DNA of 64,000 nucleotides from Thermoplasmata archaeon (GTDB taxonomy: Archaea > Thermoplasmatota > Thermoplasmata > Lutacidiplasmatales > UBA184), in the NCBI GenBank assembly GCA_028864975.1, contig JAGWLG010000017.1:1624-65623 (forward strand), written 5' to 3'. A model generated the notes under the pieces. The model saw only the letters and a program-made list of their open reading frames with translations, did not search any database and was not told the origin of the DNA. A program made the position numbers and the translations under genes. Below are positions 5,260 through 29,280 of the stretch, piece by piece. Numbering within the stretch: position 1 is the stretch's first letter; every line of letters begins with the position of its first letter.

Positions 5260-5502
5260 CGATCCCCGGCTCGCGTCGGGCTTCGATCGACAACGCCGAT
5301 CCACAGAAGGAGCCTACGCGCGGTGGGGGATCGACTCTTCACGCGGTCTTCAGAAAGGGGATGACCTTCGTCAGGGCGTGTGAGGAGTACCGTAGAGCGA
5401 CCGCACCCTTCAGCATCCTCTCCTAGCACCGCTTCGGCGAGGGAAGCATGCGCGACTGGGAGGCACGCAGATATACGTGGGAATGCGGAGCCGACTCGAA
5501 AC

Positions 5503-5510
5503 GATTATGA
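5503..5510 (+). promoter_or_regulatory. TATA-like AT-rich box (gattatga) about 30 nt upstream of ATG 5536
   Basis: It is an isolated AT-rich octamer in a GC-rich intergenic region. The spacing fits an archaeal TATA box with a leaderless or near-leaderless start. Confidence 0.35.
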
Positions 5511-5535
5511 AGGGGACGGGACGTTCGAGTCTGCT

Positions 5536-8500: not shown

Positions 8501-11500
8501 CATGGGTGCAGGACCTCCCCTCCCCCGCGAGCGGGACGGGGAGCTCGGCCGCGACCATCTCGACCACGTTCACGGTCCAGGACCTCCTCACGATGGCCGT
8601 CGCTCCCGCGGCTTCGGGCACCGTCGGCCCCGGCACCGGTTGGGTCGCGGACGGTGTGGGGGTCTCGATCTCGGCGGGGGCCGCCCCTGGCTACTCGTTC
8701 AGCTCTTGGACCGGCGCCCCGGCCGCGCGCGGCGCTTACTCAGGGACCAACGACCCTCAGACCGTTACGCCCTCGGGGGGCGGTATCAACGAGACCGCGA
8801 ACTTCGTGGCCGCGACCACGTATGCCGTCACCTTCAGCGAGAGCGGGGTCCAGGCGTGGTTCCCCACGTGGGGCGTGACCCTGAACGGCGTCACGAAGAC
8901 CGCAGCTCCAGGAGTCTCAATCACGTTCAACCTCCCCACGGGGACTTCGTACAGCTACACGGTGCCCACGATAGCGGTCAACGCCTGGGTCCAGGACGTT
9001 CCCACGCCCAACAGCGGTTCCGGGAGCGTCGCCGCCACCATCCCCGTAGCCTTCCAGGTCCAGGACCTCCTGACCACCGCGGTCAGCCCTGCAGCGTCCG
9101 GCACCGTCAGCCCGGGCACGGGCTGGGTCGCTGACGGCGTTGGCGTCGCCATCTCCGCCGGCCCCGCCTCGGGCTATGCCTTCAGCTCTTGGACGGGAGC
9201 CCCGGCCGCGCGTGGCGCCTACTCCGGCACCAACAACCCCCAGACCGTCACCCCCTCCGGCGGCGGGATCAACGAGACCGCCAACTTCGCTGCCCTGACC
9301 AGCTACACGGTCTCGTTCTCCGAGACCGGGGTCCAGGCTTGGTACCCCACTTGGGGGGTCACCCTCAACGGGGTCACCAAGACCGCGGCCCCGGGGGTTG
9401 GCATCAGCTTCACCATCCCTACGGGGACTTCTTACAGTTACACTGTCGGGACGATTGCCGTGAACGCTTGGGTGCAGGATGTGCCCGGCCCTTCGAGCGG
9501 CTCGGGCAGCACCGCCGCGACGGTCGCCGTGACGTTCCAGATCCAGGACCTTCTCACCATGGCGGTGAGCCCGGCCGCCTCCGGGAGCGTGAGCCCGGGC
9601 ACGGGGTGGATCGCGGACGGTGTCGGGGTCGCGATCTCCGCCGGGGCGGCCGCAGGCTACTCGTTCGGCGCCTGGATGGGCACCCCCGCGGCACGCGGGG
9701 CGTATTCGGGGACGAACGACCCCCAGACCGTCACCCCCTCCGGCGGCGGGATCAACGAGACCGCGGACTTCACCGCGGCGACGACCTACGCGGTCACGTT
9801 CAGCGAGAGCGGGGTCCAGGGCTGGTGGGCGAGCTGGGGCGTCACCTTGAACGGCGTCTCCAAGACCGCGGCACCGGGCGTCTCGATCACCTTCAACGTA
9901 CCGACCGGTACGCCGTACAGCTACACGGTGCCCTCGATCGCGGTCAACACTTGGGTGCAGGACATCCCCGTCCCCGCGAGCGGCTCGGGCTCCGCGGCGG
10001 CCACCGTCGCGGTCGCCTTCGCGGTGGAGGACCTCCTCACCATGGCCGTGGCCCCCGCCGCCTCGGGGACCGTCAGTCCTGGCACGGGTTGGGTGCCTGC
10101 GGGTTCGATCGTGAGCATCTCGGCGGGACCCGCTAGCGGCTACGTCTTCTCCAGTTGGACGGGAACGGGGGCGACCGGAGCGTACAGCGGCACCAACGAC
10201 CCCCAGTCCATCACGGTCAACGGAGGCATCAACGAGACCGCCAACTTCGCGGCCACCACGACCTACACTGTGACCTTCACGGAGTCCGGGGTCCAGACCT
10301 GGTGGGCCAGCTGGGGCGTGACCCTGGACGGCGTCACCAAGACGGCCGCCCCGGGAGGCTCGATCAGCTTCTCGGTGCCGACCGGGCAGTCCTACAGCTT
10401 CACGGTGGGGTCCATCGCGGTCAATACCTGGGTCCAGGATGTTCCCTCCCCTGCGAGCGGCTCTGGGAGCACGACAGCGACGGTCGCCGTGGCCTTCTCG
10501 GTGAAAGACCTCCTCACCATGTCGGTCAGCCCCGTCAACAGCGGGACGGTGAGCCCAGGGACCGAATGGGTCGCGACGGGGACCCCGGTAACCATCTCGG
10601 CAGGAGCCGCCGCAGGCTACGTCTTCAGCAGTTGGGCGGGAACCGGGGCGAGCGGCGCCTACAGCGGAGCCTCGAACCCGGACACCATCACCGTCAACGG
10701 CGGCATCAACGAGACCGCCAATTTCGTGGCTCCGGGCACGTACACCGTGACCTTTACGGAGACCGGGGTCCAGAGCTGGATCGCGACCTGGTCGGTCACC
10801 CTGAACGGTGTCACCAACACGGCAGCCCTGGGCAGCCCGATCAACTTCATCGTGACGACCGGGACGTCATACTCCTACTCGGTGTCCACGATCACGGTCA
10901 ACACCTGGGTCCAGGACCAACCTTCTCCGTCGGGCGGCACCGGGAGCTCTGCGGCCACCATCGCCATCACGTACACCGTCGAGGACCTCCTGACCACCGC
11001 CGTGTCCCCTGCGAGCTCGGGGACCGTGAGCCCCGCGACGGGATGGGTCCCGGACCTGACCCCGGTCAGTCTGTCCGCGGGTCCTGCGAGCGGCTACGCC
11101 TTCGGTTCCTGGACCGGCACGGGGGCCACGGGGGCCTACTCCGGCTCGAACAACCCCCAGAGCATCACGGTGAACGGCGGGATCAATGAGACCGCGAACT
11201 TCGTCCCGACCACCACGTACACGGTGACCTTCACGGAGACCGGGGTGCAGGCCTGGTGGAGCGGTTGGGGCGTCACCCTCAACGGGGTCACCACCACCTC
11301 GCTGCCGGGGGCACCTGTCGTCTTCAATGTCCCGACAGGTCAGTCGTACTCGTACACGGTCGGCATGATCACCGTCAACGGCTGGGTCGAGGACCTTCCC
11401 TCGCCCTCCTCGGGCTCGGGAAGCTCGGCCGCGACCATCGCGGTCGCCTTTGCGGTCGAGGACCTCCTCACCATGTCCGTCGCCCCCGCCAGCAGCGGGA

Positions 11501-16353: not shown

Positions 16354-17607
16354 TTATGAATCTTGGGTCGAGCGAAGCGTCGGCGTGACAGGTCCCGGCA
16401 TGGAAGGGGACGCGGAGGGGGTCGGGACCGAGAGCAGGAGCGGGGCGCTCGCGCGCTGCGGGAACAGCGCGACCCAGATCGCCCAAACGGAGAGGAGGGC
16501 GTGCTGGAAAGCCCAGTGGAAGAGGAGCGCGGGCCCCACGACCGTGTCGGGAGGCGCGGCCCCCCAGGAGGCAGGGGCCCCCAGATACCCCATGCCCTCG
16601 TTGATGAGGCCCCCCAGGCCCGCGGAGACGAGGGGTGCGGGGACCCAGAAACCCCAGGAGACCCCCGCGAGGAGGAGGACGAACCTCCCACCTCGGCCCG
16701 GTGCGGATGAGCACCATCGCGAGATGTAGCGCGCCCCTTCCGTCGGAAAGAACCCCATGAAGATCGCCGTCAGGCTGAGCAGCTGGTGCTCGAGGGCCCA
16801 GTGATAGAGCAGGGCGGGCGTGACGGCACTAGAGGGAGTGTTTCCCATCTCCACGAACATCGCGAGGGACCAGGTGATCCCCGCTACGATCAGGCTCAGC
16901 CGCAACAGGACCGAGGAGAGGACCCGGCGGTCGAAGCGCAGCTTCTCCGTCGGGCAGGCTCGGGCCTGGGAGATGGCCCGTTCCTGCGCGATGAGCGCGA
17001 GCCAGATCACCGCGATCTGGAAGAGGCTCACGTACCAGTCGTTGTAGAGGACCTGGGAGGCGGTGACCGCGGAGAGGCCGGCGACCACGGCCACGACCGA
17101 GGGGCCGACACAGGTCACGCAGCAACAGGCGCCCAGCGCGGAGAGCCCCGCGATCCCCGGCAGAGTGCCGGCGACCGTGGGGGCCGTGCCGGCGCTCCCG
17201 CCCTCCTCGTCCTCAGGGTCGCGGCGCCGTGATCGGCGGAGGAGCTCGACCGCGACGACCACCCCGATGCCGGTGCCGATGGCGGCGATGACCATCGTGA
17301 ACGTGGCCAGGAAGGGGAACTGGGCCTGGATCCCCGGACCCCAGACCAAGAGGTTCGGGAAGTCCCAGATCGGGCCCCCCGGGGGCGCGAAGAGCGCCCC
17401 TTGTACGATCCATGCCTCGTTCCAGCTCCCGACGATGAGCATCTCGCCCGAGAGCATGACCACCCAGGTGTAGAGCCAGGCGATCAGCCCCACGCGACGC
17501 CAGCCGACCTCGCGGACGATCGCCCTCAGCGAAGGCAGGCTCGCGAGACAAAGAGCACGCTCGAGCCCTCTCGCGACAAGCCGCAGCGAGGAGACATCGC
17601 TCGGCAC
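16354..17607 (-). CDS. Polytopic membrane protein of unknown function
   Basis: Multiple hydrophobic helices, a Cys cluster 'GACCCVTCVGPS' inside a helix, and paired 'LLYHWALEHQLLS' / 'LLFHWAFQHALLS' motifs. The ORF as listed reaches 17787, 2 nt from the divergent gene. I place the start at the in-frame GTG at 17607, which lies about 26 nt downstream of a 'cctatagg' box. Other candidate starts are 17493 and 17457. Confidence 0.6.
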   Translation of the reverse strand: MPSDVSSLRLVARGLERALCLASLPSLRAIVREVGWRRVGLIAWLYTWVVMLSGEMLIVGSWNEAWIVQGALFAPPGGPIWDFPNLLVWGPGIQAQFPFLATFTMVIAAIGTGIGVVVAVELLRRSRRRDPEDEEGGSAGTAPTVAGTLPGIAGLSALGACCCVTCVGPSVVAVVAGLSAVTASQVLYNDWYVSLFQIAVIWLALIAQERAISQARACPTEKLRFDRRVLSSVLLRLSLIVAGITWSLAMFVEMGNTPSSAVTPALLYHWALEHQLLSLTAIFMGFFPTEGARYISRWCSSAPGRGGRFVLLLAGVSWGFWVPAPLVSAGLGGLINEGMGYLGAPASWGAAPPDTVVGPALLFHWAFQHALLSVWAIWVALFPQRASAPLLLSVPTPSASPSMPGPVTPTLRSTQDS

Positions 17608-17630
17608 GAGAGATGGAGGCGACGCTCGGC

Positions 17631-17636
17631 CTATAG
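17631..17636 (-). promoter_or_regulatory. TATA-like box (ctatag) about 26 nt upstream of GTG 17607
   Basis: AT-rich hexamer in GC-rich sequence. The spacing matches the other candidate boxes in the window. Confidence 0.3.
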
Positions 17637-17789
17637 GGCCGTTGGTGCAGGACCGAACTCGTCCATCCGGATATCGGACTTCGGTTACGGACCGACGCGT
17701 GTGCGCCGTGGTCACGCCTTTATAGCCCGTGCCAATCCAAAACGCGGCAAGCTCCTGGGGACGCACCGGGGGCATGAGGCACGTCATCG

Positions 17790-20700
17790 ATGCGGCGGTT
17801 CCTGAGCAGAGAGAAGCTCCGAGTCCCCAGCTTTGACGAATGGCGTCGGGCCACCTGCTTCCTCCTCGTCGGTATCGTGCTCTTCTCCGGCTACGGGACC
17901 TTGGCGCCTGCGGCGCTGCGCTGCCACCTGCCGGGCCGGGTCGAGTGCCCCGGAGGGGTCCTAGGTCCCGACGTGGCCGCGGCGTCTCCCGGGACCCAGT
18001 GGTTCCAGGTAATCGCGTACGACTACTCCTTCTGGATCACGAACACCCAGACCGGGGCGAACGATACCTCGACCTGGAACATGTACGAGGGATGGAAGGC
18101 CCACATCAACACGACGAGCTACCCCGCGAACCCGAACGTAGGGGGGGTCAACGAGCACGGGATCGGGATCTACTCGAACTCTCAGGGGTCGTTGCTCTCC
18201 CTGGCGGCACCGGTCGGCTCCTGGGCGAGCGGCTCGTTCACGGTACCCTCGACCGCCGAGACGGGGGACCAGATCTACTGCACGATCTACTGTGGTCCGG
18301 GGCACTCTAGCCAGTACCTGAACAACATCAATATCGAGCCCGCCCCGCCTCAACCGAGCGTCAGCAGCACGGCCACCCCGACCAGCGGGACGGCACCGCT
18401 CTCCGTGGCGTTCACGGCGACCCCGTCGGGCGGCACCTCCCCCTACACGTATGCCTGGACGTTCGGCGATGGGAACACCGCCACTTCCCAGAACCCCTCG
18501 CACACGTACAGCACTGCGGGGACCTTCACGGCCACCGTGAAGCTCACGGACAGCCAGGGGATGGTCGCCTCCTCCTCGCAATCGATCACCGTCAATCCAC
18601 CGGCAACGCTCAGCGCCACCGCCTCCGCGTCGCCCACTTCGGGGACCGCTCCGCTCTCGGTCGCGTTCACGGGGACGGCGAGCGGGGGCGCCACTCCTTA
18701 CGCGTATGCCTGGTCCTTCGGCGATGGGCTCACGGGGACTGGAGCCACGGTCGCTCACACGTACACCGGCGCTGGGAATCCTGTCGCGACGCTCACGGTC
18801 ACGGACGGGGCAGGTACCACAGCGACCTCCTCGGTCCCTATCACGGTCACCGCCGCGGTGCCGCTCTCGGTGTCGGCTTCCGCGGACAAGACCAGCGGGA
18901 ACGCGTGGCTCCACGTGAACTTTAGCGCCTCCGCCACCGGAGGGTCGGGGACCTACAGCGCGGCCTGGAACTTCGGCGACGGACAGACCGGCACGGGCAT
19001 GACCACATCTCACATCTACACCGTCGCGGGAAGCTACACTCCCCAGGTCACGGTGACCGATATTTCGGGGAAGAGCGGGACCGCGACCACCTCGACGATC
19101 GGCGTCACCGGTGGTCAGACCGCTCCCCTCAAGGTGAACGCGGTCGTCTCCCCCTTGAACGGGACGGCCCCCCTGACCGTCAATGCGAGCTCCTCCGTCT
19201 CCGGCGGTTCCGGGGGCTACGTCTACACCTGGGGCTTCGGCGACGGATCTCCCGGGTCGCACTCGCCCGCCCCTCAGCACGTCTACAACTCTTCGGGGAC
19301 GTTCCCGGTCTCCCTCTCGGTGCAGGACTCCGCGGGACACGTGGCAACGGCGTTTGCCAATGTGACGGCGACCGCGCCGCAGGGTCTCACCGCCTCGATC
19401 GTCCTCAATCGGACCGGAGGGGATCTCCCGCTCAGCGTCCAGGCCACGGCTTCCATCCCAAGTGGAGCGCCCCCCTACACGACAAGCTGGGACTTCGGCG
19501 ATGGCACCACCGGAAGCGGTACCATGGCCGACCACATCTTCACGCGAGCAGGGACCTTCACCATCACCCTCGCGGTGACCGATTCGAAAGGAGCCCACAC
19601 CTCGAGCTCGGCGTCGGTCGTGGTGAATCCTCCGCTCACCGCGAGCCTTGGCGCGAGCGTGTCGACCACCTCGTACGCGGTCAACTATACGCTCACGGTC
19701 TTGGGAGGCTCGGGGCACTACGAGCTTCCCTTCGTCTGGTCCTTCACCGACGGCACTGGGACCCAGACGAACCTCTCGGGGACTTCCGCGACCCACGTCT
19801 TCTCCGGGGCCGGGCCGGTGAGCGCGACCGTCAAGGTCGTGGACAGCCTCTCAAGGGCGATCTTGGTCAGCAACACGACGACGCTCCCGACCATCTCCTC
19901 CCCTTCGCCTACGGGGGGTTCCATCCCCGGCGCTTCGCTCGGCCAACCCTGGCAACCCGGGATCGGCGACGCGAACGCCACCGGGCTCGGTCTGTTGGGT
20001 CTCATGGCCCTAGGGACGCTCTTCCTCATCGCGACCTCACCAAAGCGCAAGGTGAAAGCCAAGGCCGGCCACTCCCAGAGCTCTTCGGCGACGGTGGGTA
20101 CGGGTCTCGTGGTCGGAGCAACGGCGGCCCCAGCAGGACCCTCCAGCGCCACCGGCCCGACACCCGCCGAGGTCGCCGAGGCGGAAGCCATCGCCGCGGC
20201 GTTCTCCCCGACGGACGAGAGCAAGGAGGCCAGGATTGCTCGTGCGAAGGCGAAAGCGATCAAGGCCAAGGCCGAGCGTGCGGCGAAGGCCGCCGCGAGT
20301 CCCACCGCGGGAGAACCCCCCTCGGGCACGTCGGGCGTTCCAGGGCCCATCGCAGTTTCTCCTGAAGTCGTGGCCGCCGAGGCCGCGGCGGCAGCCTACG
20401 CGCCCGGCGATACCAGCAAGGAGGCGAAGATCGCCCGAGCCAAGCTCGCTGCGGCGAAGGCCAGGGAGGCCCGCGCGGCCAAGTCTGCCTCCTCGAGTCC
20501 CTCTCCCGCTGCCGGAGCTTCCGGTGGTCTCCTGCCCCCACTCCCTCCGCTACCCCCACCCCCTCCCTCGCCTGTTACGTCCACGCCGAGCTGCGTGCCT
20601 CCGCCAGACGGGGGTTGGGCTCGGCCCTCACCTCCCTTTCCACCACCTCCGGCCCCTCTGCCGCCCCCACCTCCGACCTTGGGAATGGGGACCGCGAGTC

Positions 20701-20894
20701 GTGCGGGGTTTGCCTCGACGACTGGTGCCGCCCTGGGACGGAGCGGGACTTCCGCTAGCGGGGCCACATGGGCGCTTCGCGCCCCTATCGCTCGCCTGCC
20801 CCCTCCGAGCACGTGGACGAAGGGTGAGAAGCGTGAGGGGGCTCCTCCCTCCTCGGCGTCCCAGTCCGGTGCCTCCGCGACACCTCCGCCGTGA
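17790..20894 (+). CDS. Membrane-anchored surface protein. N-terminal cupredoxin-like domain, 6 PKD domains, TM, and a Lys/Ala- and Pro-rich cytoplasmic tail
   Basis: N-terminal signal/anchor CFLLVGIVLFSGYGTLAPA. The C-x3-C-G-x2-H motif 'YCTIYCGPGHSSQ' (nt 18279-18314) resembles the CuA / Cupredoxin_1 metal site. PKD consensus 'TSGTAPLSVAFTxxxSGGxxPYxYxWxFGDGxT...HTYxxAGTFTxTLTVTD' occurs five times, plus one degenerate copy. TM GLGLLGLMALGTLFLIA is followed by KRKVKAK. Confidence 0.85.
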   Translation: MRRFLSREKLRVPSFDEWRRATCFLLVGIVLFSGYGTLAPAALRCHLPGRVECPGGVLGPDVAAASPGTQWFQVIAYDYSFWITNTQTGANDTSTWNMYEGWKAHINTTSYPANPNVGGVNEHGIGIYSNSQGSLLSLAAPVGSWASGSFTVPSTAETGDQIYCTIYCGPGHSSQYLNNINIEPAPPQPSVSSTATPTSGTAPLSVAFTATPSGGTSPYTYAWTFGDGNTATSQNPSHTYSTAGTFTATVKLTDSQGMVASSSQSITVNPPATLSATASASPTSGTAPLSVAFTGTASGGATPYAYAWSFGDGLTGTGATVAHTYTGAGNPVATLTVTDGAGTTATSSVPITVTAAVPLSVSASADKTSGNAWLHVNFSASATGGSGTYSAAWNFGDGQTGTGMTTSHIYTVAGSYTPQVTVTDISGKSGTATTSTIGVTGGQTAPLKVNAVVSPLNGTAPLTVNASSSVSGGSGGYVYTWGFGDGSPGSHSPAPQHVYNSSGTFPVSLSVQDSAGHVATAFANVTATAPQGLTASIVLNRTGGDLPLSVQATASIPSGAPPYTTSWDFGDGTTGSGTMADHIFTRAGTFTITLAVTDSKGAHTSSSASVVVNPPLTASLGASVSTTSYAVNYTLTVLGGSGHYELPFVWSFTDGTGTQTNLSGTSATHVFSGAGPVSATVKVVDSLSRAILVSNTTTLPTISSPSPTGGSIPGASLGQPWQPGIGDANATGLGLLGLMALGTLFLIATSPKRKVKAKAGHSQSSSATVGTGLVVGATAAPAGPSSATGPTPAEVAEAEAIAAAFSPTDESKEARIARAKAKAIKAKAERAAKAAASPTAGEPPSGTSGVPGPIAVSPEVVAAEAAAAAYAPGDTSKEAKIARAKLAAAKAREARAAKSASSSPSPAAGASGGLLPPLPPLPPPPPSPVTSTPSCVPPPDGGWARPSPPFPPPPAPLPPPPPTLGMGTASRAGFASTTGAALGRSGTSASGATWALRAPIARLPPPSTWTKGEKREGAPPSSASQSGASATPPP
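18357..19890 (+). repeat. Six tandem PKD-domain coding units (~260-280 nt each)
   Basis: Recurring 'W(T/S/N/G/D)FGDG' cores and 'APL(S/T)V' strands in the translated frame. Confidence 0.8.
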
Positions 20895-22261
20895 TGGGAC
20901 CGATGTACGGCGGGCTCCCCTTGGCTCCAGGTGGCCTCACGCACTGTCCGCAGTGCGGGAGCGCGCTCCTTCCCGGGCGCGTCTGTCCCAGCTGCCAGGT
21001 CGCTTGGGAGCCGGTGACCCCGACCGCCCCTGCCTCCGCAGCGACACCCCCGCCACTCCAGATCTGCCCCTGGTGCGGGGGGGCTCTCCAGAACGGAGCG
21101 TGCTACCGGTGCCGGGTCGAGTGGGTCCCGAAGGGGAAAGGCGGTCCGGCACCCCCCCCGATGGCCTCCGCCGCGCCCCCGGCGGCGCAGAAGCCTCGCA
21201 CCACCCAGACCCGTTCGAAGACGATCGTGAAGAAGGCGCTGCGGTACATCCCGCCCGTCCGGCTCGTCTGGATCTTCCTCGGCATCCTGATCGCGGTCGG
21301 CGAGACCCAGTCCACCCCCGCGGGCGAGGGGGCGTGGGCCGCCGTGCTCGCGTTCGCCGTGGGACTCGACCTCGTGATCCAGTTCGGGAGGTTCGGCAAG
21401 AAGCTGCGCTTCCCCGACGCCGCCCTCGCGATCGGGATGTTCATCGTCATCCTGGTCCAACCTCGCAACGCGACCATCGGGAGCGACCCCACCGTGGACT
21501 ACGGGGTCACCCTGCTCGCGGTCACGGCTGCCACCATCGTCATCCGCCACCTCCTCCGTCAGAATGGGCGTCCGTGGTTCAACCCCACCGCGCTAGGGCT
21601 GGCCGTGGGGCTCTTCCTCTTCGGACTTCAGGTGCCCTGGGCCGTGGGAGTCTGGCCCGCCTCAGGGGCAGCGCCTCAGAAGGTCGCGGAAATCGTCCTG
21701 GTCGTGATCTTCGGAGTGGTGCTCGTCATCCGTCAGCGGAACACCTGGAGGTTCCCCGCGTTCTTCTTCGCGACCGCCATCCCGCTCCAGTTCGTCCAGA
21801 CGCTTGCCCTGCAGCAAGGGCTCGGAGCGGACCCCGGGACGACCCTGGCCACGACGATCTTCGCCCCACTGACGTTCTTCTACGGTTTTTTCATGGTCTC
21901 CGAGCCGAGGACCGCACCCTCCGCCCCGAAGCACATGTGGCGCTTCGCGATCCTCGTCGGGGCAACCTACGTCCTGCTGGGACTCCTCTTCGGCTACGGG
22001 GCGAACCACAGCACCTCGATCTACTTCTGGTCGAACCTCTCCTCCATCGACCCGTGTCTCGCGCTGTTCGCGGGGAACCTCTACGCCGTCGTGACACGGA
22101 AGGTCTGGAAGAAGCGGCCGTCGAAGGACGTGGCGCCGCGCTCCGTCGCGGCCCCCTCCCCTGAGCGGTATGGCGCGTTCACCGCTCCCATGTTCTACGG
22201 CGGGTTCGAGATCGTGGGGGCGCCGGGCCCGAACCCGCCCTCGCTCGCGGGTGCGCGCTGA
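20891..22261 (+). CDS. Double zinc-ribbon fused to an RnfD/NqrB-like (NQR2_RnfD_RnfE family) polytopic membrane domain
   Basis: N-terminus has 'CPQCGSALLPGRVCPSCQ' and 'CPWCGGALQNGACYRC'. The membrane part carries the family signature 'FFYGFFMVSEPRTAPS' (compare the RnfD/NqrB 'FFMxTDPxTsP'). The GTG/ATG start at 20891/20894 overlaps the upstream stop at 20892-20894. Confidence 0.7.
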   Translation: MMGPMYGGLPLAPGGLTHCPQCGSALLPGRVCPSCQVAWEPVTPTAPASAATPPPLQICPWCGGALQNGACYRCRVEWVPKGKGGPAPPPMASAAPPAAQKPRTTQTRSKTIVKKALRYIPPVRLVWIFLGILIAVGETQSTPAGEGAWAAVLAFAVGLDLVIQFGRFGKKLRFPDAALAIGMFIVILVQPRNATIGSDPTVDYGVTLLAVTAATIVIRHLLRQNGRPWFNPTALGLAVGLFLFGLQVPWAVGVWPASGAAPQKVAEIVLVVIFGVVLVIRQRNTWRFPAFFFATAIPLQFVQTLALQQGLGADPGTTLATTIFAPLTFFYGFFMVSEPRTAPSAPKHMWRFAILVGATYVLLGLLFGYGANHSTSIYFWSNLSSIDPCLALFAGNLYAVVTRKVWKKRPSKDVAPRSVAAPSPERYGAFTAPMFYGGFEIVGAPGPNPPSLAGAR

Positions 22262-22279
22262 TCGGGGAGGTGCTTGGCG

Positions 22280-23830
22280 ATGTCTTCTTCGGTACCGACC
22301 CGCTCGGTGTTGTTGATTGGCGGCCCTGCCTCCCTGCTCCGGTCCCGCGAGGTAGGTGACGCGCTCCGCCCATCACTTGAGAAGCTGGGCGCGCGCTCGG
22401 TCTTCATCGACCCCGCGGTCGCTTCTCGACGTGAGGGGCTGCCTTCGTTCCTCGAATCCCTCGCCACGTCCCCCGTCGTGGTCGGTGAGGTGCCGCCGGG
22501 GGGGGGCTCGGACCCGAAGCTGCTCCTGGTGCTCGGGACGGCCATGGGGGCCAACGCCCCCTCGACCCTCCTGCTAGGCCCGGGGACGGGGGCAGCGGAA
22601 CAAGGGCTCGTCAGCCTGCTCCACGCGACGGTCCTTCAGTACCGCGACACGAACGGACTCGTTCAGGGTCTCACCTACTTCCTCGACGAGGCCTGGAAGG
22701 TGACAGACGTGGGCGCACCGGCGACCGACGCCTGGAAGGACTGGCGCGGTGCGCAGGGGATGCTCGCCCGGGGTTCGTTGCAGGGTCAGGCCGGGCTGTT
22801 GGGGGAAGAGGTGACCTCCGACCAGGAACTCTTGAGGAGGTTCTCGGAGCGCAGGGAGCCTCCATTCCAAGAGACGACGTTACGAGCGCGCATCAACCTC
22901 GCCTCCTCCCTGCGTCTCCTCGGGCGCTCGTCGGAAGCCCTCCAGGCCTACGCCGAGGCCGCCCAGCAGGGCTCGCGCATGGGCGGGTCCGTCGGCGAGG
23001 AGGGTGCGGTCCGAGCGCAGGTGCTCATGTCGGAACTGCTCCTGGAGCTCTCACGTCCACGAGATGCGTTGGCGACGCTGGACCGTGCGCTCGAGGTCCT
23101 TGATAAGGACGAGGGCACGGAGCTCCGTATGTGGAAGGCCCGAGCGGTCCTGGGGCGCGGCCTTGCGCTCTCCGGGGCCGGGGACGCGAAGGGAGCCTTG
23201 TCGGTGTTCTCGAGCGTCGTGGAGCGCTTCGGGACCTCCCCTGAGGCCGAGCTGCAGGAGTACGTTGCGAAGGCCATGATCGACCGTGCGATCACCCTGA
23301 CCGACCTCTGGGAGAAAGGTGAGGCGCTCCGAGAATACGACCTGGTGGTCCAGAAGTTCGGCGACGCGGCCGACCCCGAGCTCTTCGAACAGGTCACCAA
23401 GGCACGGCTCAACCGAGGGCTGTTGCTAGGGGACCTCGGTCGTCACGGCGAGGAGATCGCCCAGTATGACGAGATCGTGGAGATCCTCGACGGCAACGAA
23501 GATGCGGCGACCCGTCCGTTGCTGGCGCGGGCCCTCCTCAACAAGGGCGTGGCGCTGGGGCAGCAACGGAAGTTCCGTGAGGAGCTCTCGGCGTACACCG
23601 AGGTGGTCCGAAGGTTCGAGGGGATCGACGAGCCCAGCCTCTCGGAGCCGCTCGCCCGCGCCCTTGTCAACGAAGGGCTCTCGCTCATGCGGCTAGGTCA
23701 GGACGAGGAAGCCGCCTTCGCCTTCGACCGAGTGGTCGAACGCTGGGGCAGTTCGACCGACCCTTCGATACGCTCGCTGGTCCAGGGAGCCCAGGAGAGC
23801 CGGTCGAGGCTGCCGGAGCCGTCTTGGTGA
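22280..23830 (+). CDS. TPR/helical-repeat protein with an N-terminal alpha/beta (Rossmann-like) domain
   Basis: ATG at 22280 is preceded by 'ggggaggtg' (SD-like) and lies 18 nt after the upstream stop. The C-terminal ~330 aa are helical repeats with recurring 'A(R/K)AL.N.G..L..LGR..EA...Y' patterns. The N-terminal ~120 aa read 'SVLLIGGPAS...KLLLVLGTAMGA'. Confidence 0.65.
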   Translation: MSSSVPTRSVLLIGGPASLLRSREVGDALRPSLEKLGARSVFIDPAVASRREGLPSFLESLATSPVVVGEVPPGGGSDPKLLLVLGTAMGANAPSTLLLGPGTGAAEQGLVSLLHATVLQYRDTNGLVQGLTYFLDEAWKVTDVGAPATDAWKDWRGAQGMLARGSLQGQAGLLGEEVTSDQELLRRFSERREPPFQETTLRARINLASSLRLLGRSSEALQAYAEAAQQGSRMGGSVGEEGAVRAQVLMSELLLELSRPRDALATLDRALEVLDKDEGTELRMWKARAVLGRGLALSGAGDAKGALSVFSSVVERFGTSPEAELQEYVAKAMIDRAITLTDLWEKGEALREYDLVVQKFGDAADPELFEQVTKARLNRGLLLGDLGRHGEEIAQYDEIVEILDGNEDAATRPLLARALLNKGVALGQQRKFREELSAYTEVVRRFEGIDEPSLSEPLARALVNEGLSLMRLGQDEEAAFAFDRVVERWGSSTDPSIRSLVQGAQESRSRLPEPSW

Positions 23831-23855
23831 GGTCACCACGGGCGGGGGGGTCTCG

Positions 23856-24428
23856 ATGGAGCAAGCAGAAGGAACGATCGCCTGGCGAGAGAACGCCCTT
23901 CGCCGCTCGCTCCGGAGAAGGACCTACCTCGCCTTCCTTGTCAGCGCAGGTCTCCTACTGACCGTGATCACGTTCGATGCTCTACCGTTCGACCTTGACC
24001 TCCCGGGGATCCCGGACGTCGAGCTCATCTTTCCGTTGTACGCGAGCCTTACCCTCGCGTGGGTGGTCGCGCTGGCCTTCCTCTACGCGACCTGGCTGCT
24101 GTACGCCAACGCGCCCGTTCGCATCGGGTTCCATCGCGAGGGCATTGTCGTGGGTTACGACCCGGACCGTCCCGCGATGGCCCTCCACCTCTTCACCCGG
24201 GCCTCCCCGCGGGAGGTCGCCTGGAAGGAGGTCCGATCGATCGTCCCCGCCGGACGATCCGGGCTCTCACGGCACGACGTCGCCCTTTGCCGCCGCGGGG
24301 CGAGACCTTGGATCCTGGCGGGCCTCTCCCATGAGCTCCGCGATGCGGTCGTTCTCGCGCACCGCGCCCACCGGGACGTCGCCCAGAACGGTTCGTGGCA
24401 AGGCTATGCTCCTCGACCCCTGAGCTGA
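23856..24428 (+). CDS. Hypothetical membrane protein (2 TM plus a cytoplasmic domain)
   Basis: Hydrophobic segments YLAFLVSAGLLLTVITF and LTLAWVVALAFLYATWLLY. No motif was recognised. Confidence 0.5.
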   Translation: MEQAEGTIAWRENALRRSLRRRTYLAFLVSAGLLLTVITFDALPFDLDLPGIPDVELIFPLYASLTLAWVVALAFLYATWLLYANAPVRIGFHREGIVVGYDPDRPAMALHLFTRASPREVAWKEVRSIVPAGRSGLSRHDVALCRRGARPWILAGLSHELRDAVVLAHRAHRDVAQNGSWQGYAPRPLS

Positions 24429-24450
24429 CCGGCATCTTTTGCGAGGGAGA

Positions 24451-25302
24451 CTAGGCTCCGCCGAACGAGACGATCGTGTCCGTCGCGATGCCGAGGATGA
24501 AGCCCAGGACGATCCCGAACCAGACCCAGGACTTGGTCGCGGGCGCCATCATCGGCCGCACCATCTCGAGGACGACGTAGATGATGGCCCCCGCCGCCAG
24601 ACCGAAGAACAGGATCGACAGGGACGACGAGTAGACCAGGCTCCCGACCACTGTTCCGAGGAACGTGGGTCCTCCCCCGACCAACCCAAGGGAGATCAGG
24701 CGCCGCGGCGAGTAGCGTTTCCCGGAGAGGAGCCCTGGCCCCAGGATCCCGAACCCCTCGGTCGCATTGTGGGAGGCGAACCCGATGACGAGGACGGTCC
24801 CCGCGGCGAGCGCCCCCCCCGCGTAGGCTGTGCCGATGGCCAGCCCCTCGGAGAAGTTGTGGAGGCCGATGCCGATGGCGATCATCGTGGAGACCGTAAG
24901 CGCATCCATGGTGAAGGGCGGCGGAGCGCGCCCTTCGACCGCGGCCTCGACCGTCTCCTCTGCCGCCTGGGACTTGGAGGCCGTGTGCTTGACGTAGATC
25001 TTCTCGAATGCGCCCAGAGAGAGGAATCCCGCGGTCCAGCCCACGAGCAGGACCACGACGTAGGCCAGGGCCAAGGACCCGTTCCCCCCGCCCTGGGCGG
25101 GGATCTGGGCCACGACCATCTCGTGCGCGTTGTTGAGGACATCGAAGAAGAGGAAGAGGAGGATCCCCGCCGCGAGGGCGCTCAGGAAGGCTCGAGCGCC
25201 CCTCGAGAGGTTCCGGCCCAAGGCCACAAGCAAGCCGAGGAAGATCGTGAATCCCGCGAAGGCCCCGAGCCCTAGGATCTGCCACTCGGTCGGCCCGGTC
25301 AT
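24451..25302 (-). CDS. ZIP-family divalent-metal transporter (ZupT-like)
   Basis: Signature 'GIGLHNFSEGLAIG' and a second 'GFASHNATEGFGI' helix, which is the duplicated HNxxEG metal-site motif of ZIP/ZupT proteins. About 8 TM segments are present. Confidence 0.85.
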   Translation of the reverse strand: MTGPTEWQILGLGAFAGFTIFLGLLVALGRNLSRGARAFLSALAAGILLFLFFDVLNNAHEMVVAQIPAQGGGNGSLALAYVVVLLVGWTAGFLSLGAFEKIYVKHTASKSQAAEETVEAAVEGRAPPPFTMDALTVSTMIAIGIGLHNFSEGLAIGTAYAGGALAAGTVLVIGFASHNATEGFGILGPGLLSGKRYSPRRLISLGLVGGGPTFLGTVVGSLVYSSSLSILFFGLAAGAIIYVVLEMVRPMMAPATKSWVWFGIVLGFILGIATDTIVSFGGA

Positions 25303-25333
25303 CGCGTTCGGAAAATAGGCACAAAAACGTGAG

Positions 25334-25340
25334 TATATAA
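25334..25340. promoter_or_regulatory. TATA box (tatataa) in the divergent intergenic region between the ZIP gene and the HTH regulator
   Basis: This is the strongest AT island in the window (gagtatataatttg). It lies about 35 nt upstream of the ZIP ATG (25302, minus strand) and about 115 nt upstream of the regulator ATG (25455). Confidence 0.5.
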
Positions 25341-25454
25341 TTTGCGCGTCCGTGAAAGTTGAGTAGGGTTGTTCACAACGTTACAGAACCGCGCGAACAC
25401 GGTGCTGCCCCCATCACGTTGTTATGTCGGCGCTCCCTTGGGAGGAGGAGCACC

Positions 25455-26267
25455 ATGCCTTCCTCCCGTGCGTCTCCCGTCACCTGGGTACGCCTGCTCC
25501 AAGCGCTCGTGGCACGGGAGCTCGTCGAGGGATTGGGGCTCCCGGCCCAGCGGGCCGCTGCCCTGCTCGGGCTCACGCCAGCGGCGGTCTCCCAGTACCT
25601 TTCGGGAAAGCGCCTGCGCTCGGAGTTCCTCTCCCACGCTACGGACGAGGGGGCGCGAGGCGTTGCACGCCGAGTGGCGAGCGAGCTCTCCGAGCGCCGT
25701 CTTGAGGGGGAGGAACGCCTCCGCGTCTTCCTCGAGGGAGCGCTCTCGCTCTCGGCCAGCTTCACGGGTGCGCGCGGACCGAAGGACCCTGCTGGGGCGG
25801 CAGCACCGGGGGTGGGCGACGCCAGGACGCGCGAGATGGCCCGGTGGCTTCGTCAGCGGGTCCGCGGCGAGCAGGCGGCCGTGACCCTGAGCATGCGGCT
25901 CGCCCAGCGAGCACGCGACGAGCTCACGAGGGCCATCCTTCGGCAGATCGCCTCCGACAGCCTCCGACACGCGGAGATCGTCGCATCGCTCGCGCCCTAC
26001 TTGGACCAAGGGGTGGTCCAGGCGCATGCCTCAGGGATCACCCGGCGGGAGGTCCAGGCGTTAATCGAGGGGGAGCGCCGGGCCGAGGCCCAGGCCGCGA
26101 CCGAGCTTACCCATCACCTTGGAGGGACGATGGCCCTCCTCCTCGCGAGCATGGAAGCGGATGAGCGCAAGCACGCCGCGCTCCTGCAAGGCCTGCTGGC
26201 GACCGGGTTCGGCGCGCCTCCCTCCGAACCGGTGAGGCGCAAGAGCCTCCCGAGACGGCACCGTTGA
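25455..26267 (+). CDS. HTH transcriptional regulator with a C-terminal all-helical (possibly ferritin-like) domain
   Basis: ATG at 25455 is preceded by 'ggaggaggag'. The HTH reads 'GLPAQRAAALLGLTPAAVSQYLSGKR'. The C-terminal helices carry 'DSLRHAEIV' and 'EADERKHAALL' (E/D-x-x-H-like pairs). The ferritin-like call is tentative. Confidence 0.6.
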   Translation: MPSSRASPVTWVRLLQALVARELVEGLGLPAQRAAALLGLTPAAVSQYLSGKRLRSEFLSHATDEGARGVARRVASELSERRLEGEERLRVFLEGALSLSASFTGARGPKDPAGAAAPGVGDARTREMARWLRQRVRGEQAAVTLSMRLAQRARDELTRAILRQIASDSLRHAEIVASLAPYLDQGVVQAHASGITRREVQALIEGERRAEAQAATELTHHLGGTMALLLASMEADERKHAALLQGLLATGFGAPPSEPVRRKSLPRRHR

Positions 26268-26315
26268 TGGAAAGGCGCCCCGGGAAGGCCCCCCCGGGAG
26301 CGAGGGACGGTCAAG

Positions 26316-26705
26316 GTGCAGGTGGTCGAGCGAGCACCTGTCCCGGCGTCGGACCACCGGGAGGACCGGATCCTCGAAGCACTCGCCGACCCCACGATGC
26401 GCGCGATCCTGCTCGCGCTCAACGAACGCGCCCAGCCGGCCCCGGTGATCGAATCGGAGCTTCGGATGCCCCACAGCTCCCTCTATCGGAAGATCCACGA
26501 GCTGAAGGCACTCGGGCTCCTCGGCGTCGAACGCGTCGAGATCACCCCCCAAGGGAAGCGGGTCGAGCTGCTGCGAGCGCTGGTATCCAAGGTAACGGTC
26601 GAGATGGATGGAGGGCGGTTGAGCGTGAGAGCGATGTTCCGTAGCCTGGCGGAGGAGCGAGCGAGGACGATGTGGAGCGCCATCCGAGAAGAGGTGCGGC
26701 GATGA
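26316..26705 (+). CDS. ArsR/SmtB-like winged-helix regulator
   Basis: 'ILEALADPTMRAILLALNE...ELRMPHSSLYRKIHELKALGLL' matches the ArsR-type HTH layout. The start codon is GTG. Confidence 0.7.
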   Translation: MQVVERAPVPASDHREDRILEALADPTMRAILLALNERAQPAPVIESELRMPHSSLYRKIHELKALGLLGVERVEITPQGKRVELLRALVSKVTVEMDGGRLSVRAMFRSLAEERARTMWSAIREEVRR

Positions 26706-27100
26706 CGTCCCCGGACCTGATCTGGCTCCTCCGGGGGCTCATGGGGGTGATCCTAGTGGTCGGGACACTCACCGCTTACTACGCCCTCGCCGCAGGACGT
26801 CGGGCCCGCTCCCGGTCGATGCTCCTGATGGGCGGGGGGTTCGTCCTCATCTCGCTCGCCGCCGCGTCTGCGGGGCTGGTCTATGAGATCTTGACCCACG
26901 ACCCGCTCACGGCCTGGACGGTGAGCGCCGGCCTTTCGGCGGCAGGGTTCGTGGTGATCCTCTACTCTCTCCTGGTGCGGGAATCCGCGCCTCTGGGGGA
27001 CCCCGCCATGGAAGATCTCCGGGGGGAGGCGGGTTCCGGTGCAGAGGTACGGGTCCCAAACGCTGAGTCCCAGAAGTTGGATTTGACCTCCGGCAGGTGA
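26702..27100 (+). CDS. Small membrane protein (3 TM), translationally coupled to the ArsR-like gene
   Basis: ATG at 26702-26704 overlaps TGA at 26703-26705 (ATGA). Hydrophobic helices LLRGLMGVILVVGTLTAYYAL, LLMGGGFVLISLAAASAGLV and VSAGLSAAGFVVILYSLL. Confidence 0.6.
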   Translation: MTSPDLIWLLRGLMGVILVVGTLTAYYALAAGRRARSRSMLLMGGGFVLISLAAASAGLVYEILTHDPLTAWTVSAGLSAAGFVVILYSLLVRESAPLGDPAMEDLRGEAGSGAEVRVPNAESQKLDLTSGR

Positions 27101-27152
27101 ATCTCCCCCGGGTCGGGTCCCCAAGGCGGCAGGGCCGCCGAAGAGGAAGAAC

Positions 27153-27836
27153 ATGTCCGAAGTCACCGAGAGGTCCTTGTCCGACGAGAAGCAGACCCCC
27201 TACGAGACCCGGACCGGCCATCCCCCAGCCCCGGTGGGGAAGGGCACGGGCGCGTTGGTCGTGGTGGCGGTCGTGGCCTTGCTGGTGGGCGTGGGCGGAG
27301 GGTTCCTGGTCGGTCACGCCACCGTGAACAGCCCTTCCCCCGCCCCCAAGGCCGCGACGCCGGTCGACTACGTCTATCTCCAGATCAAACCGGGCTGTGC
27401 CTGGTGCGCGTCGCCCTTCAACGGCTCGGACGAGTACACTCCGGCGAACTTCACGGTCCCCGCCCACACGCTGATCGTGCTCACCATCACCAATTTCGAC
27501 AATGGTGTGAACCCGGTCGCGCCCTCGGTCCGTCAGGTGAGCGGGGTCCTGGGGAACGTCGAGTACCAGGGGGCGTCAGCGCCCTCTTCCTGGGGAACGA
27601 CGGCGAGCTCGGTCGATGGGAGCGCGCTCTCGCACACCTTCAGCGCGAACCCGCAGAGCACGACGTCGGGGTTCAACGTGCCGATCCCGGCGTCGACCGG
27701 CCCCGGAGGCAACTCGGTCACCGTGATGATGTTCTTCAACACGACCGGGTCGATCTCCTGGCAGTGCAACGCTCCGTGCGATGGCTGGTCGATGGCTCAG
27801 GCCGGGTTCATGGCCGGGACGATCACCGTGGTGTAA
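27153..27836 (+). CDS. Membrane-anchored cupredoxin-like protein (metal-site residues degenerate)
   Basis: N-terminal anchor ALVVVAVVALLVGVGGGFLVG. The beta-rich body reads 'FTVPAHTLIVLTITNFDNGVNPV'. The C-terminus 'ISWQCNAPCDGWSMAQAGFMAGTITVV' resembles the cupredoxin C-terminal loop (C-x3-C...M..G.I.V) but lacks the His. Confidence 0.55.
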   Translation: MSEVTERSLSDEKQTPYETRTGHPPAPVGKGTGALVVVAVVALLVGVGGGFLVGHATVNSPSPAPKAATPVDYVYLQIKPGCAWCASPFNGSDEYTPANFTVPAHTLIVLTITNFDNGVNPVAPSVRQVSGVLGNVEYQGASAPSSWGTTASSVDGSALSHTFSANPQSTTSGFNVPIPASTGPGGNSVTVMMFFNTTGSISWQCNAPCDGWSMAQAGFMAGTITVV

Positions 27837-27876
27837 ACGACCAAGCGAAAGTGGCTGAGGGGGGTGGATGGCCCCC

Positions 27877-29226
27877 TCAGCCCGAGCAACCCGAGACGGC
27901 GTAATCGTCGCCGTTGAACTCGGCGAACCCGTAGTCCTCGTACATGTCGGTCTCGGTCACGGTGACCTGGTTCACCGGGTCGTAGAAGACCACGACACCG
28001 GTGTTCGAGTTGTATGAGAGGATGACCGAAGGGCCGAGGGCCTGGTGGAGGCTCTGGACCGTGGAAGCGGGGATGTTCGGGTTGTCCTGCTGGCAGTTGG
28101 CGTAGGTGTTGCCCCCTCCCCCGCTGGTGCCTCCCCCTGTACCCCCGCCGCCAGGGGATCCCCCGCCCCCTCCGAGTCCCGGGGGCGTTGCGATGATGGA
28201 GGAAGGGGTACCGGTCTGCTGGGTTGCTGTTCCGAGCGACACCCCCCCGACGACCAGGGCGACCAACACCAAGGAGCCGGCCCGGTACGCCACGGGCCAT
28301 CGGATAGATGAGGCGAGGGCGGCGCGAGAGCGCTTCGCCCGCTTGGCGTCGCGAGCACCGATCCCCACCGTCGAGGATGTCAAGGCCGGGGAGGTCCGGC
28401 GGTGAACGAAGGCCAGGAGGTTCCCCAGGAACAGGGCGAACAGGACCCCCACCGTGGGGAGGAAGATCGGGAGGAAGGAGGAGCCGATCGCGATGACGAT
28501 GGCATACATCGGCTGGAAGTTGGGGTCGCTCGGTGCCGTGCGGGGCTCGGTGACCATGAAGAGGCCGAAGAAGAGCACGGCAGGGTCGACCACCGACAGA
28601 GCGAGCAGCCGGGGCGAAAGGATGCCACCCACCAGGAAGTGCTCGAGAGCGGCGAAGCCTGCATAGGCCACGAAGAAGCTCGCGGGGATGCGCCACCGAC
28701 CGGGTTGACGGAACGCAAGGAGCGCTCCGAGGACGACGACCAGCACCTCCGCGTTGGGCGAGACCGCGGCCCACCAGGCGGGGGCCATGCCGAAGATCAG
28801 GGCGCCGAGGAGCAGCCCTGCGCCGGCCGGGTTGAGCCACGGCCGGCCCCGAAGACGGAGCGCGTGGCGGAGGCCGATGGCCGCGACGGCGACCGCCCCC
28901 GCTTCGACGAGGACCACTGTCGGAGGGAGCAAGAGCGCGAGGAAGAGCCCGGTGGCGATCGCGGACTCGGGCACGCGGAGCTCCGAGAATCGTGCGCGCT
29001 GGAAGAGCAGGTCCGTGGCGGCGGCGACCATGGGCAGGGCGACGAGCGAAGCTAGGCCCGCTCCTCCGAGGAGGTAGGAGCTCGTCCCGCCGAGCACGAT
29101 CAGGAAGATAATGAGCAGACGCACCGGTGGTAAGCGGTTCAACACCGGCCGGGCCAAGACGCGAAGCCTCTCGAGCGGGCGGTCCCCCTTCACGACGAAC
29201 GTTCGAGGCTCGGGGGGGTATATCAC
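27877..29226 (-). CDS. RnfD/NqrB-like polytopic membrane protein with a Gly-rich linker and a small Cys-containing extracytoplasmic C-terminal domain
   Basis: Signature 'LFFGLFMVTEPRTAPSDP', and it is a paralogue of 20891..22261 (both have '(L/I)PPVRL(L/V)' before the first TM). The listed ORF (to 29439) overlaps the plus-strand gene at 29281, so I place the start at in-frame GTG 29226. GTGs at 29265 and 29193 are alternatives. Confidence 0.6.
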   Translation of the reverse strand: MIYPPEPRTFVVKGDRPLERLRVLARPVLNRLPPVRLLIIFLIVLGGTSSYLLGGAGLASLVALPMVAAATDLLFQRARFSELRVPESAIATGLFLALLLPPTVVLVEAGAVAVAAIGLRHALRLRGRPWLNPAGAGLLLGALIFGMAPAWWAAVSPNAEVLVVVLGALLAFRQPGRWRIPASFFVAYAGFAALEHFLVGGILSPRLLALSVVDPAVLFFGLFMVTEPRTAPSDPNFQPMYAIVIAIGSSFLPIFLPTVGVLFALFLGNLLAFVHRRTSPALTSSTVGIGARDAKRAKRSRAALASSIRWPVAYRAGSLVLVALVVGGVSLGTATQQTGTPSSIIATPPGLGGGGGSPGGGGTGGGTSGGGGNTYANCQQDNPNIPASTVQSLHQALGPSVILSYNSNTGVVVFYDPVNQVTVTETDMYEDYGFAEFNGDDYAVSGCSG

Positions 29227-29245
29227 CCCTTCAACCAAGAGTTCG

Positions 29246-29260
29246 ATAGTTTCATATGTT
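29246..29260. promoter_or_regulatory. AT-rich box (atagtttcatatgtt), possibly bidirectional
   Basis: It lies about 27 nt upstream of ATG 29281 (+) and about 28 nt upstream of GTG 29226 (-). Confidence 0.35.
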
Positions 29261-29280
29261 ACCACCCCTGTGGCCGCTCC

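Follow-up and report, generated by a model that had tools for sequence, protein, structure and literature searches.

A conserved gene pair in Thermoplasmata joins a CuA-type cupredoxin exoprotein to an RnfD-like membrane protein

Main

We analysed 64,000 nucleotides (nt) of DNA from a Thermoplasmata archaeon (GCA_028864975.1, contig JAGWLG010000017.1, positions 1,624-65,623, forward strand; hereafter the window), in which a gene for a cupredoxin-like exoprotein stands beside a gene for an RnfD/NqrB-like membrane protein at two places. The first of these pairs (pair 1, genes A1 and B1) recurs in every sufficiently sequenced locus that we compared, and we infer that it encodes an RnfD-like two-component extracytosolic redox module in which copper takes the place of flavin. 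The second (pair 2, genes A2 and B2) is only a loose and occasional association. A first-pass annotation, made from the letters of the window, had singled out both pairs, and all four open reading frames (ORFs) were recovered at the coordinates that it gave. The N-terminal domain of A1 is referred to as A1N, and lengths are given in amino acids (aa).

17790..20894, plus strand: A1, a 1034-aa bitopic exoprotein (Pfam PKD_4, hydrophobic segments, homologues)
17958..18350, plus strand: predicted CuA-type cupredoxin domain of A1 (AlphaFold2 (AF2) model, Foldseek, family motif)
20891..22261, plus strand: B1, a 456-aa RnfD/NqrB-like membrane protein (PF03116, 32.1 bits; DZR, 25.8 bits)
27153..27836, plus strand: A2, a 227-aa cupredoxin-like protein anchored by a transmembrane segment (TM) at residues 35-53 (AF2 and Foldseek)
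27877..29226, minus strand: B2, an RnfD/NqrB-like core with a C-terminal extracytoplasmic domain (PF03116, 47.3 bits)

Results

A1 and B1 form a conserved unit

The stop codon of A1 overlaps the start of B1 in the sequence ccGTGATGgg, which holds a GTG at 20891, the TGA of A1 at 20892-20894 and an ATG at 20894. This overlap, already remarked on in the first-pass annotation, makes A1 and B1 a co-directional overlapping operon with predicted translational coupling. The B1 family is rare (45 matches). In nine B1 homologues chosen across 34-50% identity, the gene directly upstream on the same strand encodes a PKD protein of about 780-830 aa, and all nine of these proteins carry the A1N domain at 46-57% identity. 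The pair of CuA-PKD and RnfD-like genes is also present in the three closest genomes (L001-L003). A reverse search from A1N in metagenome contigs retrieved four loci, two of them with enough downstream sequence; both have the RnfD-like gene, and one duplicates L091. Of the independent loci with enough sequence (the window, L001-L003, L081-L087, L091/L095, L092 and L093), 14 of 14 have an RnfD-like gene downstream of a CuA-PKD gene in the same orientation, and the flanking genes differ from locus to locus. Judged by gene order, A1-B1 is a conserved unit and the invariant core of a Thermoplasmata-specific operon. In related genomes a cupredoxin/RnfD pairing thus recurs for pair 1; for pair 2 it mostly does not, as described below.

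A1 carries a predicted CuA-type domain next to the membrane

A1 consists of a TM (residues 21-39), the CuA-type cupredoxin domain (~57-187), six PKD domains (~189-700; PKD_4, 245 bits over six stretches), a second TM (730-748) and a cytoplasmic tail rich in K, A and P. This layout bears out the cupredoxin-like N-terminal domain and PKD stalk first read from the sequence, and the hydrophobic segments indicate two membrane anchors, one at each end of A1, with the CuA domain just outside the first.

Only structure comparison placed A1N: Pfam, including COX2 (PF00116), gave no match for it even at E<1, and an A1N profile matched none of the PDB sequences. The AF2 model of the domain (pLDDT 86, pTM 0.78) finds in the PDB, by Foldseek, almost exclusively CuA domains of haem-copper oxidase subunit II and nitrous-oxide reductase (NosZ). 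The top structures are 2yev_B (E 2.5e-6), 6ptt_A, 2cua_A and 1cyx (E 2.5e-6 to 3.5e-5, TMq 0.53-0.64), and 6wti_B and 1fwx are also matched. The putative CuA ligands are H123 (18156), C164 (18279), C168, H172 and Q175 (18312); the two histidines and two cysteines are invariant in the A1N family, and position 175 is Met in 8 of 13 sequences and Gln in 5, including that of the window. The family spacing, H-x38-42-C-x3-C-x3-H-x2-[M/Q], matches the CuA pattern H...C-x3-C-x3-H-x2-M, exemplified by the CuA site of Thermus ba3 (H114, C149, C153, H157 and M160). By fold and ligand pattern A1N would be a CuA-type cupredoxin, presumably with a binuclear copper centre. It shares with the CuA domains of oxidase subunit II and NosZ, its best structural matches, an identical ligand spacing. 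Unlike them it is followed in the same protein by six PKD domains and a second TM, the window holds no oxidase subunit I or NosZ catalytic domain, and the A1 of the window has Gln at the axial position usually occupied by Met. Very few proteins carry A1N: a search of 1.8 billion representatives gave 14 clusters at 50% identity.

Two further features of A1 were recorded. Between the N-terminal TM and the CuA domain (17850..17990, residues ~20-65) stands the motif LFSxYGxxxPxxLRCxLPGxVxCPGGxLG, with two conserved Cys, which is kept in most of the A1 homologues compared. The cytoplasmic tail (20034..20894, residues ~749-1034) consists of about 285 aa of K/A/P-rich low complexity with repeated 'EAKIARAK..AKA' stretches, and most A1 homologues, at ~780-830 aa, are too short for a tail as long as this one.

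B1 and B2 are RnfD/NqrB-like proteins outside Rnf and NQR complexes

Both membrane proteins score above the gathering threshold of PF03116 (NQR2_RnfD_RnfE; 27.7 bits), which upholds their original affiliation with the RnfD family, and they are paralogues (32% identity over ~300 residues, E 3e-27). A profile of 33 family members matches V. cholerae NqrB (7xk3_B, 2.9e-10) and RnfD (7zc6_D, 1.2e-8), with E-values of 1.2e-8 to 5e-4 for RnfD in three solved Rnf complexes. Single-sequence phmmer searches with B1 and B2 against PDB sequences gave artefacts only (Gly-rich linkers of single-chain variable fragments and L32 zinc knuckles) and were discarded.

B1 has two N-terminal cytoplasmic CxxC..CxxC modules resembling zinc ribbons (residues 15-70), a linker and the RnfD/NqrB-like core (~115-405), with the core motif FFMVSEPRT at residues 333-341. 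The two zinc ribbons first assigned to B1 are borne out as far as the four CxxC knuckles go; the DZR score of 25.8 bits lies just below the Pfam cut-off of 27.3. Such knuckles are present in only part of the B1 family. In B2 the motif reads LFMVTEPRT (residues 222-230), and the core is followed by an eleventh TM (316-334), a Gly-rich linker and a conserved extracytoplasmic domain of ~70 aa. This C-terminal domain (27880..28104, minus strand; residues ~375-449) is the most conserved part of B2 across more than 80 Thermoplasmata species; it carries the motif C..DNPSIP...LH..LGPSVILSY...VTVTETDLYEDYGFAEFNGDDYAVSGC with two invariant Cys and matches no Pfam family.

The profile alignment spans NqrB residues 133-209 and 272-401. 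Because the NqrB segment between them (209-272), which holds T236, corresponds to only ~17 profile positions (134-151), the loop that bears flavin mononucleotide (FMN) is deleted in the B family. Consistent with an earlier failure to find the S/T-G-A-T flavinylation motif, [ST]GA[ST] is absent at the flavinylation position from B1, B2 and 41 B1-family proteins. Scores of B1 and B2 against NCBIfam models TIGR01946, NF041838 and PRK05349 range from 15 to 37 bits, against cut-offs of 207-415, and neither protein matches PF00175 (NAD-binding). A Pfam search of the 111 ORFs of 150-720 aa in the window returned no member of the Rnf-Nqr, FMN_bind, ApbE, RnfC, COX1 or NosZ families, so the initial remark that the window contains no other rnf or nqr subunits holds, also for ApbE. 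Rnf/Nqr partner subunits, FMN_bind and ApbE are likewise absent among the called genes of nine B1-homologue loci (L081-L087, L091 and L092). Since they have no flavinylation loop, no partner subunits and equivalog scores far below the cut-offs, B1 and B2 are best classified, in agreement with the first reading, as members of the RnfD/NqrB superfamily that are not canonical Rnf/NQR subunits.

The pocket for riboflavin is kept in part. The riboflavin site of NqrB is formed by T162, G198, N200, N203, A205, F342 and D346 (PMC10643135). Two motifs containing equivalents of these residues, G-[RH]-P-x-x-N-P-[AT] (G198-R-N200-F-L-N203-P-A205 in NqrB) and [FYW]-M-x-x-E-P (F342-M-A-T-D346-P), occur in 160 of 161 family members, and the equivalent of T162 is T in 109 of 114 B2-type proteins. 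The kept pocket motifs are compatible with a non-covalent flavin site in the B families. Two acidic residues within the membrane, D72 and E227, corresponding to NqrB E144 and D346, are also kept. B1 and B2 thus share with RnfD and NqrB the fold family, the G-x-x-x-x-N-P-A and F-M-x-x-[DE]-P motifs and both acidic positions, and they differ in having neither the covalent-FMN loop of ~45 residues nor the partner subunits.

B2-type proteins are publicly annotated as 'RnfABCDGE type electron transport complex subunit D' and occasionally as 'enediyne biosynthesis protein E5'; on the evidence above the name 'subunit D' is misleading. The E5 label was given by JGI to the B-family homologues P0046, P0053 and P0146, which hints that an unflavinylated RnfD-like fold may have been recruited in unrelated bacterial contexts as well.

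Accessory genes of the A1-B1 unit

Three further genes are associated with pair 1 in the window or in related loci:

16354..17787, minus strand: multi-pass membrane protein of 477 aa, with homologues at 41-47% identity near B1-like genes and no Pfam family
22274..23830, plus strand: TPR-repeat protein (Pfam TPR families), directly downstream of B1
L084:4619-5497, L086:5159-6004, L087:4558-5427, L091:5142-6008 and L092:5136-5999, and also in L093, L094 and L096: 'mid' genes

The protein encoded at 16354..17787, which is transcribed divergently from A1, has an invariant GACCCxxC motif and two [YF]HWxx[EQ]HxLLS motifs. Five loci (L085, L087, L091/L095, L092 and L093) have a homologue immediately after the B1-like gene, which makes this protein an accessory member of the module, although it falls outside the coordinates first singled out. 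The 'mid' gene encodes a membrane protein of ~285 aa with a GCPxCxP motif and lies between the CuA-PKD and RnfD-like genes in eight loci. Neither the window nor its closest relatives have this gene. The 'mid' product weakly resembles the DsbD_2 thiol-disulfide transporters (E 0.002, below the cut-off). Homology between these two membrane proteins with Cys motifs was tested and rejected. A homologue of the TPR protein occupies the same position after the B1-like gene in L001-L003 and L082, and this protein may be a lineage-specific member of the A1-B1 unit.

Pair 2 is not a copy of pair 1

The folded domain of A2 is modelled by AF2 with a pLDDT of ~90, and its leading Foldseek matches are auracyanin, NosZ, ba3 subunit II, laccases and other multicopper oxidases, rusticyanin, a Cupredoxin_1 protein and the copper chaperone CupA; the structural matches 1qhq, 2iwf_A, 5ndc_B, 1rcy, 4hcf and 4f2e have E-values of 2.5e-5 to 5e-4. 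The cupredoxin folds proposed for both exoproteins are thus borne out by models that match solved cupredoxins. In Pfam A2 has no sequence-level family match, and its own family comprises 24 clusters. Complete type-1 copper sites have the ligand set H, C, H, M and CuA sites the set H, C, C, H, M. The invariant residues of A2 are H161, C205, C209, M214 and M220 (H, Cx3C, M, M), with no second His after the Cys pair, so A2 would have neither kind of site. It resembles CupA (4f2e) and the Cupredoxin_1 protein (4hcf) in having a single N-terminal TM, then a cupredoxin fold and a Cys/Met-rich site, and differs from them in having no sequence-level family match and in its predicted H, C-x3-C, M, M site. 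A2 is possibly a copper chaperone or carrier.

The first-pass annotation described the two pairs as a duplicated gene pairing, a description that fits the paralogous B1 and B2 and fails for their partners, as A1N and A2 belong to unrelated cupredoxin families and the gene orientations of the two pairs differ. Homology between A1N and A2 was rejected, with no BLASTP match and a profile-profile probability of 0.5%; a concatenated A1N+A2 query returned proteins of the A2 family only. A2 follows, on its own strand, the genes of an HTH_20 and a DUF7521 protein, and faces B2 tail to tail across a spacer of 40 nt between the stop codons, as had been noted. Since the two genes are convergent and separated by a hairpin, A2 and B2 are not co-transcribed. 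The hairpin and the genes of the neighbourhood are:

27853..27882, unstranded: GC-rich inverted repeat with an 11-bp stem in the A2/B2 spacer, overlapping the B2 stop; a possible bidirectional terminator
24451..25302, minus strand: ZIP transporter (Pfam)
25359..26267: HTH_3 and rubrerythrin-like protein (Pfam)
26316..26705, same strand as A2: HTH_20/ArsR-like protein (Pfam)
26672..27100, same strand as A2: DUF7521 membrane protein (Pfam)

B2 orthologues are widespread in metagenome-assembled genomes (MAGs) of Thermoplasmata and near-universal even where no cupredoxin gene adjoins them. Among the best 80 of 122 matching stretches in Thermoplasmata MAG contigs, an iterative profile search found an A2-like gene next to B2 in two (L018 and L042, in the same convergent order) and 5 kb away in a third (L006, in the same orientation); the gaps of the convergent arrangement measure 40-80 nt in the window, L018 and L042. 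A rough B2 tree places the three species that have the adjacency on separate branches, and the A2-like copy of L018 has lost one Cys. In L002 and L003, the closest relatives, the homologue of the gene at 23856 comes immediately next to B2 and the whole segment 24451..27836 is missing, and this block looks like an insertion or rearrangement. The missing segment holds the ZIP, HTH_3+rubrerythrin-like, HTH_20 (ArsR-like), DUF7521 and A2 genes; in L001 the ZIP and HTH-rubrerythrin genes are found on the other side of B2. Approached from A2, three to four of the roughly seven A2-family genes with known context are near B2, and in L088-L090 none of the three A2 homologues has an RnfD-like neighbour. 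No gene family is found near B2 in more than 14 of the 80 loci and none has a consistent position, and the idea of B2 as an operon member was dropped for want of a widely kept neighbour family. ArsR and DUF7521 were also considered as conserved partners of A2, and no significant counterpart was found in other A2 loci. On this evidence pair 2 is not a copy of the A1-B1 module: B2 appears as a widespread stand-alone paralogue to which A2 is only occasionally adjacent.

Genomic setting

The window has a G+C content of 64-71%, and the nearest relatives of its proteins (identity up to 65-70%) are encoded in MAGs of uncultured 'Thermoplasmata archaeon' from soil, peat and acidic environments. Pfam matches are sparse, with only 20 families among the 111 ORFs searched, and very large surface proteins are abundant. 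Long tandem arrays at 1..3665 and 8365..12297, with periods of 483 and 477 nt, about eight copies and ~70% matches, fall within two genes for giant surface proteins: 94..5259, which encodes 1721 aa with InlB B-repeat/Flg_new_2 domains, and 5380..14007, which encodes 2875 aa.

Discussion

Among described systems, A1-B1 comes closest to the two-subunit Nqr/Rnf-like complexes (Meheust et al. 2021; Huang et al. 2024), in which an RnfD-like subunit without the conserved Thr is joined by an extracytosolic flavinylated NqrC/RnfG-like partner and which have been proposed to pass electrons of NAD(P)H to the cell exterior (bioRxiv 10.1101/2024.03.13.584918). As in those complexes, B1 has no flavinylated Thr and stands beside a single membrane-anchored extracytosolic redox protein, away from other Rnf/Nqr subunits. 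The membrane subunit of the described complexes carries a C-terminal PF00175 domain and its partner is an FMN_bind protein, whereas A1-B1 has no PF00175, FMN_bind or ApbE and instead combines a CuA-type cupredoxin-PKD partner, a zinc-ribbon-like N terminus and an archaeal host. A literature search returned no description of a pairing of RnfD-like (PF03116) and cupredoxin proteins, and the earlier suggestion of an undescribed membrane redox or metal-trafficking module is a reasonable one for pair 1.

Our preferred reading, which we hold tentatively, is that A1-B1 is a compact transmembrane electron-transfer relay in which CuA replaces the flavinylated partner of the two-subunit Nqr/Rnf-like systems. 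From folds, motifs, family membership and gene order we infer the cofactor content, physical interaction and electron transfer that such a relay supposes. A1 would present a CuA-type binuclear-copper domain on the external side of the membrane, with the PKD array beyond it, and this CuA would act as the outer one-electron centre. B1, having lost the covalent-FMN loop and kept the core motifs, including those of the NqrB riboflavin pocket, would be the membrane conduit that carries electrons between the cytoplasmic side (a quinone or a cytoplasmic partner) and the CuA of A1, possibly with the help of a non-covalent flavin. The membrane proteins with GCPxCxP and GACCCxxC motifs would serve the maturation of CuA, through copper insertion or handling or through thiol reduction. 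The topology fits a relay, because the TM at residues 21-39 of A1 places CuA outside and next to the membrane.

Several observations weigh against a relay. The periplasmic-side FMN that links riboflavin to the outside in NqrB is missing in B1, and because this bridge is missing, the distance from a flavin on the cytoplasmic side to the external CuA may be too great for electron transfer. B1 has no recognisable cytoplasmic domain for electron input, neither PF00175 nor anything else besides the zinc-ribbon-like knuckles. Within the putative flavin pocket, the equivalent of N200 is Pro in the B families, that of T162 is N, T or I and unconserved in the B1 clade, and the shared motifs are also just those that the fold as a whole conserves best. 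The Cys motifs of the accessory genes, which resemble Cu(I) sites, fit copper handling equally well. It is more doubtful that an RnfD/NqrB-fold protein acts alone as a flavin (or quinone)-to-copper relay that feeds a surface CuA, and so constitutes an unrecognised respiratory or extracytoplasmic electron-transfer module. If that were true, A1-B1 would serve uncultured Thermoplasmata of soil and peat as a minimal quinol:CuA oxidoreductase or as an extracellular outlet or inlet for electrons. Its CuA centre would then be the first, outside oxidases and N2O/NO reductases, to have a dedicated membrane partner of its own.

The main rival explanation, which we consider unlikely, is a machine for copper delivery or maturation, made up of a CuA protein and a dedicated metallation apparatus: a channel-like B1, together with the Cys-motif proteins, would move Cu(I) outwards, hold the CuA cysteines in the reduced state or do both, and the redox partner of A1 would be encoded elsewhere. 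Such a machine would account for the membrane-embedded GCPxCxP and GACCCxxC motifs and H-x4-H pairs of the accessory proteins, the sub-threshold DsbD_2 likeness of the 'mid' protein, the membrane acidic residues D72 and E227 of the B proteins and the ZIP and ArsR-type genes nearby in the window, and the H/C/C/M/M site of A2 and its structural match to CupA likewise fit copper trafficking. Yet the invariant partner of A1 is B1, in all 14 loci, and the Cys-motif proteins occur in only about six to eight; B2 is near-universal in these archaea even without an adjacent cupredoxin; and to our knowledge no PF03116 member transports copper.

Pair 2 raises the question of whether cupredoxins and RnfD-like proteins share one general partnership, with A2-B2 a functional pair like A1-B1. 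The presence of two cupredoxin families beside two RnfD-like paralogues is suggestive, as are the recurrence of the convergent B2/A2-like order in the window, L018 and L042 on well-separated branches of the B2 tree (with L006 at 5 kb) and the proximity to B2 of three to four of the roughly seven A2-family genes with known context. Against this, 78 of the 80 B2 loci have no adjacent A2-like gene (L006 being the one with a more distant copy), the A2 segment is absent from L002 and L003, and no RnfD-like gene adjoins the A2 homologues of L088-L090; a hairpin separates the convergent A2 and B2, A2 follows the HTH_20 and DUF7521 genes on its own strand, and the L018 copy is short of one Cys. A general partnership therefore seems improbable to us. 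Given the separate branches and the small size of the A2 family, we allow a loose, facultative association of A2 with B2 about the same low probability. Very improbable is an explanation with no redox or metal link at all, in which the B proteins act as channels for ions or solutes or help to assemble the envelope, A1 is a surface PKD protein with a structural cupredoxin-like domain, and the two genes are transcribed together because both products serve the envelope. In its favour are the many giant surface proteins of the window, the Na+ half-channels within the NqrB fold (PMC10643135) and the conserved extracellular domain of B2, of the kind that a receptor or transporter might have. For a purely structural domain, however, the complete and invariant CuA ligand set with its M/Q axial position is hard to explain, and it is the A1N domain, not PKD proteins generally, that always accompanies B1.

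The relay, if it exists, bears on two protein families. CuA centres are known to us almost only as the electron-entry sites of haem-copper oxidases and N2O/NO reductases, and we know RnfD/NqrB proteins only from inside multi-subunit Rnf/NQR pumps or from flavin-based two-subunit systems described recently. An operon joining CuA and RnfD-like proteins would extend both families, and would show that the RnfD fold can be redeployed as a membrane-spanning module whose outer redox partner, flavin or copper, is interchangeable. The near-universal paralogue B2, which bears the database name 'RnfD' and stands outside any Rnf complex, corrects metabolic reconstructions that count it as evidence of Rnf. 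For the uncultured Thermoplasmata that abound in acidic soils, peat and mine waters, A1-B1 is a concrete candidate for the movement of electrons or copper across their single membrane.

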